Assembly: GCA_044892525.1 (NCBI GenBank)
Contig: CM097885.1
Location: 24,864,001-24,928,000 of the forward strand
Length of the DNA stretch: 64,000 nucleotides
Source: Schmidtea polychroa
Taxonomy: Eukaryota
Reading direction: 5' to 3'
Made by a program: the position numbers and the translations under genes. Under the pieces are notes generated by a model. It worked only from the letters and a program-made list of their open reading frames with translations, was not told the origin of the DNA and made no database searches. Positions 24,801 to 27,800 of this stretch are shown here, piece after piece. The first letter of the stretch is position 1, and every line of letters starts with the position of its first letter.

Positions 24801-27800
24801 TTTCTTAACACATTCATATTCATCATCTCCACAGTTCATAACATTTTCAAATACAAGTTCAAAGTATTATTATTATTATTATTATTATTATTATTATTAT
24901 TAGGGAATTATTATATGTTTGCAGTATTCTTTGTTTGCCTTTAGAGGAAATTGTCAATAAGGAGCGATAATTTTATACATACATTCTATATACACAGTGC
25001 TCGAAGTGAGGCGGGATAGCCGGGATATTATCCCGGCATTGATTATGTAGGCGGAATTGCATCCCAGCACTTCATTTCATATAATCTATAGGTTTATCCC
25101 GGTACTTATTTCATTTTATAGGCACACAAATACTGCAATTAAGGTCACACATAGTACATCCATATATGTATGTATATATATATTCTTTATTCTCTATTCT
25201 CTATTCAATTAAGAATTTCCCAAGCAGCAGTAATGGATAGGTAGGTATATTCTCTTATTTAATTTAGTTAAACCAGCAACTTATGATTAAATGGGTGGAC
25301 ACCCCCCCCAAAAAAATTTGTTGGACACCCCCCAAAGTTTTGCAACACCCCCAACTGAAAATTTCTGCATAAAAGCCTGGAATCCCGGGTGCCACAGCAT
25401 GCCTATCCCGGCACATATTTTGTTCCACTTCGAGCACTGTATATACACATACCTTGTTTAACATGGGTGTATATACTCCTAGTCTATCCGACAAAATATT
25501 CTGTCCCCCTATGGGTATTGCTCATATGGGTATTGGTCACCAGGATACTACACACATTCAACATGTCGCAAGGATATATTAATTAAGGTTAGTAAATAAA
25601 ACTTATAACACATACTGTTTAAACGATAAAAATCAAGACAAGAGAGGACAAGGCAAAGTTTATGCATTTAGTATTGCCAGGTCTAATGAGCAGTGACCAA
25701 ATATCTGTGCCTGAAAGATACGGTGGATATTTGTTCGCGTCCACAAGGGTCGTCTGTGCCTCCCCCAAGTGGGGTCAGAAGAACCTGGGCATTATAGTTT
25801 TCCGTACGGAACATTACGCCTAGCATGGGTAGTCAACTACCAGCACATTCGAAACGTATAATTTCAAAATACATGCGTCATTGGCACTATAACCAAATTA
25901 ATTAATGTTTTCACTAACACAAATATATATTTACAGAGGCCTCCCACTAGTTGGATTTATCATAATTGCTCAGTCAAATAACATTTGTTATGTATGTTTT
26001 CATTTGTGGATTAAATACTTTATCAAAATAAATTTTTATCCCATTATTAAAATATTTTAATTCGTTAGTAACTCATATATTAAAAATAATTTATATATCT
26101 TCATCACTTATAGCCCCCGAATTTCCAATAATCCTCCCAACAAATATTTCTTTTAAAAATTGTACTAAAAGTGATTATTTTTTATGAATTTTTATAAATT
26201 TTATGAATTTCATGAAATAATTTCAAATAAATGCAATTAATAAATTCATATTTTAAATTTGATTAACTCCTTTAATATTGAAATAATAATTATTATATTT
26301 ACTATTTTACACTAAATATTTCAAAAACAAATATTCTAATAGATAATTTAAGATACATTACTCTTTTCACTCAAAATGATCTCTCAAAGTTAAGAAGGAA
26401 ACAAAGTGTGTCAGAACACATATCCAGCATTCACTTTACATAAATATATGAAAACACCAAGTAATCAATGATAATAGAGGGATAATAGACTCAAAAATAA
26501 AATATTCTTACCACCTGAGAATAATATTGTTAATTTTATCTCTGTGTTATCAAAATTATCTTTCGATTTTATGTTGCTTACCATTTTAGAATAAGATTTT
26601 TTATTAAAATTTGTGATAATTTGACTGATTCAATTTGATGGAGTTATTGTTAATTCGTTTTATTATATATACTCTGAGTTTATCCGACAAGATATTTTCT
26701 CCCTCTATGGGTACTGTTCACAATTGGTACTGCTCTTAAGGGTACTGGTCGTAAAGGTACTGTTGTGTTTTAATGATTTTATTTAGGCAAATATTTGGTT
26801 ATTATTTGGCATTAAATTCATTGGTTATTTTTTAGAGTTAGCGGGAATTTACTAACATTTTTTGTGAATTTCATGTTAATTGAAAGAATATTTAAAAATT
26901 TAAGGTTTAGTGTTAATTCTAAGATAAATTTAATTAATTTCTTGATAATTTGCTATATTTTATTGACTTGTTTTTAAATTTTAAATAAAAATTAATTTTG
27001 ATGATGACTTTGTAATGATAATTTGACTAAATAATTTTTCATATATTTTTCTAAGAATATTTACACATTGATAAACTTTAAAATATTAAAAATCTAAAGT
27101 TGAAACCAGCTAATTTTTTCACGATGATGATATATTTGAAATCTACTTGAAAATTATTGTAAAATATACTGAAATTTAGTTTGAAAGATATATCATGTTG
27201 TAATGGCTATAATTAGTTGAATCGACGAAGAATTATGATCAATCAATGAGATATTATCATCTCTAGTTAGGTATTTGATGATACATGTGGTTAAATATTT
27301 ATTTTGATCTTTTAGTGGACTCTTTGAATTTAGCTACTAAATTATTTCAATGGAAGAATGTTTTTAACAATTAAATAAAATTCATATTTTGAAGGATTTC
27401 CCATGGATTTTAAGAGAATTGATATATTAAAGTCGGTTGGATTTAGTGAAGGTTCGGTTAAGATGGTAATATATGATTTTTAAGGGGGTTTTTAAAATGC
27501 TAGAAATATTTGGTGAGGGATCGGTTAAGGTGGACATGTTTTGAAATCTCTATTTAAATCGACAATGTTCTTATTGGTAAAATATCAAATTTTCAAAGGA
27601 AATAGTTAGTATTTAGCTATGAATTAATAATAATTCCAGTGAACTTATATCGTTTTAGAGGTTTATTAGGTCGTGATGAATGTTATTGCACAGTAATTTG
27701 GATTTATGTTTTAGAACAAGTTTTTATTAATTATCTATTAATTATCCATGGTTTTATTAAGTCGTTTAGGGTTAATGATCAATTAGGTGTTTATTTACTT

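Follow-up and report, generated by a model that had tools for sequence, protein, structure and literature searches.

A conserved cassette in a Schmidtea polychroa Polinton family as a candidate source of element-borne structured RNA

A fold-back Polinton derivative with two copies of a GC-rich island

We analyzed a stretch of 64,000 nucleotides of the Schmidtea polychroa genome (GenBank assembly GCA_044892525.1, contig CM097885.1, positions 24,864,001 to 24,928,000 of the forward strand), here called the window. It contains a gene-less fold-back derivative of a Polinton that is built from two copies of the capsid-gene-side end (Table 1); no long ORF was found anywhere in this element. Its AG-type termini, long TIR, and 6-bp target-site duplication are those of a Polinton, a group of elements presumed to be relatives of adenoviruses. 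Elsewhere, the window holds an LTR retrotransposon (1944-6360) with gag/pol ORFs and 300-bp direct repeats that are 98% alike, a piece of a pogo/Tc5-type transposase (10169-12205) with an inverted second copy 50 kb away (62555-64000), and an 11-bp tandem repeat array with a strong G skew (18048-18750).

Table 1. Features of the fold-back element and its cassette (positions in the window)
Feature	Position	Strand	Remarks
6-bp target-site duplication GATAAT	23829-23834	+	Partner at 32155-32160
Gene-less fold-back Polinton derivative	23835-32154		Two copies of the capsid-gene-side end; AGTAGT...ACTACT termini
True left TIR	23835-24717	+	Inner end approximate; TIR inner end of full-length elements mapped onto the window
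MITE-like insertion	24995-25439		Left arm only; own 14-bp inverted ends
Purine-rich conserved block 5' of the island	25625-25672	+	Cassette conservation stops here
Island (terminal stem, apical stem with cap, CCCC/GGGG hairpin)	25671-25801	+	Predicted 5' half of the RNA
Long hairpin	25785-25823	+	Overlaps the proposed 3' stem strand and T4; inner part with paired double changes, young versus old
Distal segment able to pair with 25683-25689	25878-25884	+	Best kept of 11 candidate helices (85% of 74 old cells)
T4 run common to young and old copies	25908-25911	+	Predicted Pol III terminator of a ~240-nt RNA; 3/4 young, 12/17 old
Conserved block upstream of the Alu mimic	30078-30108	+	Inner boundary of the cassette
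AT-rich stem closing the Alu mimic	30109-30182	+	30109-30121 with 30170-30182; a T-run follows in old copies
SRP (7SL) Alu 5'-domain mimic	30123-30166	+	Opposite to the island; Rfam RF00017, E 0.0022
Island, copy 2 (right arm)	30304-30433	-	Arms 25440-25957 and 30148-30665 are 99% complementary
True right TIR	about 31197-32154		TIR inner end of full-length elements mapped onto the window

The TIRs of two full-length elements (L041/L042, 15.4 kb, and L045/L046) are ~1.4 to 1.6 kb long, with ~1.4 kb in L041/L042. Each of these elements carries a single island copy downstream of the capsid gene, which in L041/L042 lies about 1.4 kb interior to the TIR. A preliminary description had placed the island within a Polinton TIR; the membership in a Polinton is upheld by the AGTAGT...ACTACT ends and the GATAAT duplication, but the island is subterminal and outside the true TIR. 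The window has two island copies because the fold-back element consists of two identical ends. A motif of ~70 to 85 bp is present six times in the element, with copies facing either way (24604, 25457, 26653, 28590-28674, 30535-30634, and 31212-31296); it marks the inner end of the TIR and is a candidate binding site or fold-back breakpoint.

ATPase, integrase-like, and capsid ORFs are present in both full-length elements, together with a protease-like ORF in L041 (all named by motif recognition). pPolB is absent from the full-length copies examined that bear the island and its conserved surroundings (the cassette described below); it was confirmed by Pfam in other copies and is abundant in the genome, which also contains elements with a polymerase but no cassette. 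Two kinds are very abundant, capsid/integrase elements that lack pPolB and separate inverted pPolB pairs, as if a Polinton had been split into two complementary parts.

The family is numerous. A 17-letter island pattern had 1,957 matches in the 781-Mb genome, and its reversed control had 0; many of these copies are paired in inverted orientation within fold-back elements, and several further copies that we retrieved are likewise fold-backs of the same capsid-side end. The 109 capsid ORFs scored are all 100% identical, and the family is therefore young. Both element flanks were found at 27 of 29 young loci, the remaining two having a shorter inner flank, and ARAGORN reported nothing in the window. 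With no tRNA head and with the island inside element flanks, a dispersed SINE or tRNA relic, the alternative that the preliminary description had set against its own proposal, was rejected.

The island stands out by composition, as first described (GC content of 0.49, versus 0.28 across the surrounding element), and its second copy does lie on the minus strand, at 30433-30304. Three stems, an A-box-like string, and a B-box-like string had been picked out by eye, and all are readable in the window sequence. The TTTT reported directly behind the closing stem is present, but it starts 6 nt past the stem and forms the 5' arm of another hairpin; at its first T, 25798, 12 of the 49 young island hits have C instead, with some copies represented twice among these hits. 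An 8-bp direct repeat within the island, at 25706 and 25754, would permit alternative pairings or mark a repeated binding site. The purine-rich block upstream of the island (25625-25672) is a candidate gene-external promoter element or, on the other strand, a candidate pyrimidine-rich 3' end.

A ~420-bp cassette shared with old relics

The island belongs to a cassette of ~420 bp that comprises an upstream block, the island, a spacer, a mimic of the Alu domain of the SRP RNA, and another upstream block. Using the diverged Alu motif as bait, we gathered 23 old relics, each single- or two-copy. Within a 5,000-nt young stretch, only 1454-1876 matches the old relics (19 of 23 loci, 65 to 79% identity), apart from three short stray matches elsewhere; the old relics have extra flank in common among themselves. 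On the island side, the conserved unit reaches past the island to about 25911. Judged from the sequences, this conservation of the cassette but not of its flanks points to selection, in a test that is biased by the search for relics by their likeness to the cassette. Since the island within the cassette is conserved far above the flanks, an element-encoded structured RNA is plausible. The earlier suggestion that this Polinton family has a small RNA of its own thus gains from the element membership and the conservation of the cassette, but not in the form of a VA-type unit. We regard the cassette as a real, conserved, unclassified candidate for an element-borne RNA.

Polinton genes stand near only some of the relics. 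Over 20 kb around 10 of them, we found one decayed ATPase plus pPolB upstream, one ATPase, one young pPolB of another family, two weak integrase matches, and nothing at the other five; 5 of the 10 are without any Polinton gene within 10 kb. An ATPase is present at an eleventh relic. Homologues of the capsid protein exist outside the S. polychroa genome; no relatives were found in viral contigs, and the metagenome contigs searched for relatives gave three short loci. The element profiles did not match tRNA-headed RNA units at four loci of other Polintons in the genome. Some 200 nt from one old cassette relic, Rfam reported a mir-753-like hairpin (L131, 1239-1299; 56.4 bits, with a cut-off of 62); mir-753 is a planarian family.

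The neighbor of the island in the cassette is the Alu mimic. The Metazoa_SRP model of Rfam matches 30123-30221, weakly (E 0.0022). The left arm ends abruptly at 25957 and contains just the 3' part of this Alu mimic, and in L041 the mimic occupies 4173-4216 on the minus strand. It copies the Alu 5' domain found in the host's own 7SL RNA: a profile of the element copies scored 23.7 bits against the host 7SL, while the best of 300 shuffles scored 10.8. No similarity extends beyond the Alu head, and profiles of the spacer and of the island had no match in the host 7SL. For the island, pairwise comparisons with 7SL were borderline (24 and 6 of 300 shuffles) and the profile search was negative; homology was rejected. 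The 7SL genes of the host are arranged in tandem, in an array whose unit is 593 bp long (L066; G000:C2:31.93-31.99 Mb), and ~320 motif matches occur genome-wide.

The Alu mimic folds as a true Alu domain, with a UAAU core that is invariant and intact in 16 aligned rows, and it shares with the SRP Alu 5' domain (RF00017) helices 3 and 4, the UGU(A)A U-turn core, and similarity to 7SL. This domain is reproduced by the neighbor, whereas the island itself is without 7SL similarity. Unlike 7SL, the mimic is Polinton-borne, has no S domain, and is closed by a stem made from upstream sequence; this stem, which gives the domain a circularly permuted topology, is kept in old relics. The closest known counterparts of the mimic are the SRP Alu 5' domain and scAlu/BC200-type Alu RNAs. 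Its closing stem is like that of a circularly permuted Alu RNA made artificially (PMC4238359); in the portion of that source available to us, circularly permuted Alu RNA is mentioned only as an artificial construct.

Predicted fold and ends and putative transcripts of the island region

RNAfold recovered the terminal and apical stems on island copy 1; for copy 2, it gave the CCCC/GGGG arm. The energies are only slightly better than those of shuffled sequences. The z-scores were -1.86 for copy 1 (5 of 200 shuffles as good) and -0.94 for copy 2 (34 of 200), with -1.51 and -0.87 for the opposite strands and +1.26 and -0.38 for two flanking 131-mers. The long form of the predicted RNA gave -1.11, -1.33, and -1.80 in three young copies and -0.74 on the opposite strand. 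RNAalifold found little or no structure on gappy alignments; on 11 rows, it recovered the terminal stem, the cap, the side hairpin, and the downstream hairpin, on both strands. In an alignment of 19 rows, 73% of the 529 cells that belong to the named helices are paired; sliding the helices lowers this to 32 to 44%. The terminal stem as first proposed is paired in 69% of 59 old cells; for TCTG/CAGA in the side arm, the paired share of old cells is just 52%. The stems are mostly preserved, but the z-scores are weak, and a longer fold that involves the distal segment (25878-25884) competes with them.

Covariation, which had been put forward as a check on the fold, is thin. Among relics, double changes were not above shuffles (181/500), as expected because the relics decay from one state. 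Between the young copies and the old majority, 4 of 38 pairs changed on both sides, with 0.9 expected (P 0.002); three of them stay Watson-Crick, and one breaks the pair. Three of the four double changes are in the hairpin at 25798-25813, outside the interval first described, and one is in the apical stem. Paired columns are no less variable than unpaired ones (12/77 versus 14/58 changed, P 0.27). We conclude that the evidence for a fold is real but modest.

The strand tests tie, with alifold energies of -16.8 for the + strand and -18.2 for the opposite one and mean z-scores of -1.11 versus -1.23 (12 rows). Fixed G-U pairs at 25684, 25694, 25787, and 25797 fit the + strand; non-Watson-Crick states at 25699 and 25710 and a polymorphism at 25682 fit the opposite strand. 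We slightly prefer the + strand.

T-runs were surveyed in 4 young and 17 old rows; AT-rich DNA has many such runs and the relics descend from common ancestors, so that the counts are not independent. On the + strand, no T4 between 25672 and 25907 is common to young and old copies, and the T4 run listed in Table 1 is the one shared by both (T4 or longer at 25904-25913). On the other strand, a run of at least four T's stands just behind the Alu stem (25913-25923) in 13 of 17 old rows and in 0 of 4 young ones, and another lies within the island (25776-25778) in 14 of 17 old rows, where it would stop Pol III; the young rows are without the latter. Each of the two proposed units is preceded by ~50 conserved bases. 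This layout is that of two convergent Pol III units with back-to-back terminators. The Pol III rule (no internal T4 and an end at T4 or longer) fits the ~240-nt unit on the + strand in most rows; young copies often have a T4 at 25798.

The island region is present in contigs of sequencing runs guessed to be RNA, and these contigs cross both proposed RNA ends. Over L041:3860-4260, run X1 (RNA by guess) shows A>G changes at 23 places and T>C changes at 21, compared to 0 and 2 in run X5, and in one X1 contig a cluster of T>C changes covers the island and continues beyond it. The X1 changes are consistent with hyper-editing by ADAR of the long double-stranded RNA that fold-back elements would form. 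With the source runs guessed to be RNA, this pattern shows that both strands are transcribed and does not show a discrete small RNA: the contigs display only long, hyper-edited transcripts, and neither ends nor strand can be read from contigs. Near 25610-25655, contig ends fall on a polymorphic spot and have loose ends; no inference was drawn from them. Pattern searches of the assembly for variants seen in the runs gave no match.

Readings of the cassette

The preliminary description had proposed that the island encodes a VA-like Pol III RNA of ~130 nt, with A and B boxes and an end at TTTT (25798-25801). The features conserved in VA RNAs are box A, box B, a GGGU-ACCC pairing, and a U4 end, as given in the part of the source available to us (PMC7589676). 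In the relics, these features are not kept. Of the 17 old relics that have a letter at the position of the G in the tRNA-like A box, 0 have the G, the A-box string being confined to young copies; the canonical B box GTTCRANNC occurs in 0 of 19 rows on either strand, a non-canonical string being conserved in its place; and a T4 at 25798 behind the terminal stem occurs in 0 of 17 old rows and, as noted above, is lost in 12 of 49 young hits. The GGGU/ACCC pairing, already described as not evident, is absent from the young copy, and both tetramers occur together in only 2 of 19 rows. The conserved unit also runs on to ~25911, well past the proposed end, and Rfam gave no match at the island, with E-value limits of 5 for the window stretch and 3 for 14 relic loci. 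All of the strings named for the 130-nt RNA are in the window copy, their spacing resembles that of type-2 promoters, and the fold is recovered by alifold; against the losses in the relics, this leaves the 130-nt RNA quite improbable.

By these sequence features, the predicted island RNA is not a VA RNA. It is like one in that it would be a small, structured, non-coding unit carried by a dsDNA element from the same broad viral lineage, in its predicted terminal stem, long apical stem, and side domain, and in its box-like strings at similar spacing, but it differs in its predicted length of about 240 nt, in having no Rfam VA match, and in the VA boxes, GGGU-ACCC pairing, and U4 end that are not kept. 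The VA target PKR is not known from invertebrates. The TMERs and EBERs of gammaherpesviruses are virus-borne clustered Pol III-type small RNAs that are derived from or mimic host RNA genes, and the predicted cassette RNAs would resemble them; the cassette differs from them in having no tRNA head (none by ARAGORN), and it matches them neither in sequence nor in Rfam. A resemblance to twister, hammerhead, hairpin, HDV, twister-sister, RNase P/MRP, vault, and Y RNAs was considered by eye from their motifs, and none had Rfam support. A twister-type self-cleaving ribozyme (UAA-UGA-GC on the 5' side, UCA on the 3' side) is very improbable: the order P1-UAA-P2-GC-long hairpin resembles the twister layout in the part of PMC8501958 available to us, and the string GU-NNN-AAG-Y occurs in 6 of 19 rows, but Rfam gave no twister or twister-sister match, and the loop-4 string is absent from the young family; where it was read in the alignments, it sits mainly in the hairpin downstream and lacks its two pseudoknot partners (T1 and T2).

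The reading that we favor, tentatively and at somewhat less than an even chance, is that the island forms the 5' half of a ~240-nt Pol III-type small RNA gene on the + strand, a decoy for dsRNA defence, which faces an SRP Alu mimic gene. Pol III would transcribe the two genes from non-canonical internal boxes together with the conserved upstream blocks of ~50 bp, and transcription would end at the back-to-back T-runs, at 25908-25911 on the + strand and at 25913-25923 on the other strand in old copies. The island RNA would adopt a multi-helix fold, with its 5' end paired with 25784-25788 or, alternatively, 25878-25884; where a young copy has kept TTTT at 25798, a shorter product of ~130 nt might also be made. 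By analogy with VA RNA and TMERs, such an RNA may tie up Dicer/ADAR-type proteins, and the Alu mimic, again by analogy, may bind SRP9/14. In a wider and more doubtful form, the cassette would be a Polinton small-RNA operon, in which convergent Pol III genes for a ~240-nt multi-helix decoy and a circularly permuted SRP Alu domain constitute an independently evolved counterpart of VA RNA that acts against RNA silencing and retunes host translation. In the literature searched, mostly without subscription papers and repeat-library supplements, no description of a structured or Pol III RNA encoded by a Polinton was found, and we know of no particle, life cycle, or counter-defence established for animal Polintons.

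Three other explanations were weighed against this pair of convergent genes. The cassette could specify one longer RNA of the opposite strand (that of the capsid gene), probably a Pol II transcript or its 3' tail, in which the Alu mimic and the island are two domains and which ends near 25628, where conservation stops at a T5 on that strand. The closing stem of the mimic needs sequence upstream of the mimic's first G, the states at 25699, 25710, and 25682 fit this strand, alifold slightly favors it, and RNA of this strand is seen across the island in the T>C-edited contigs. The A>G-edited contigs show the other strand too, however, as fold-backs would give, and the four fixed G-U pairs fit the + strand; with no notable ORF between the protease gene and the cassette and no 7SL similarity past the Alu head, we consider a single opposite-strand RNA unlikely.

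It is improbable that the cassette is a cis-acting DNA signal for packaging or replication, possibly acting through single-strand hairpins and kept since every fold-back derivative needs that end. The SRP Alu fold is an RNA-protein module, and both full-length elements and polymerase-bearing elements without the cassette exist, although a signal would suit the subterminal position at one end, the many copies that are inverted pairs in fold-backs, and a wobble signature that is mixed between the strands. That the cassette is a neutral passenger, an old piece that was captured and is carried along by a young and rapidly spreading element, is similarly improbable: this agrees with the weak z-scores, with relic covariation no greater than in shuffles, and with the relics that have no Polinton gene nearby, but not with the sharp limits of conservation at both ends of the cassette, the paired double changes between lineages, and the intact Alu core. 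Even as a DNA signal or a passenger, the cassette would mark the subterminal module that is conserved and kept by fold-back satellites. Its presence, as a conserved RNA cassette, in a young and very abundant family of elements in a flatworm permits a direct test of whether Polintons make their own small RNAs, and a natural circularly permuted Alu domain, if true, would be of structural interest. Among the fold-back copies, L034/L035 and L036-L040 are perfect palindromes whose centers lie at differing points of the element, one of them within the capsid gene.
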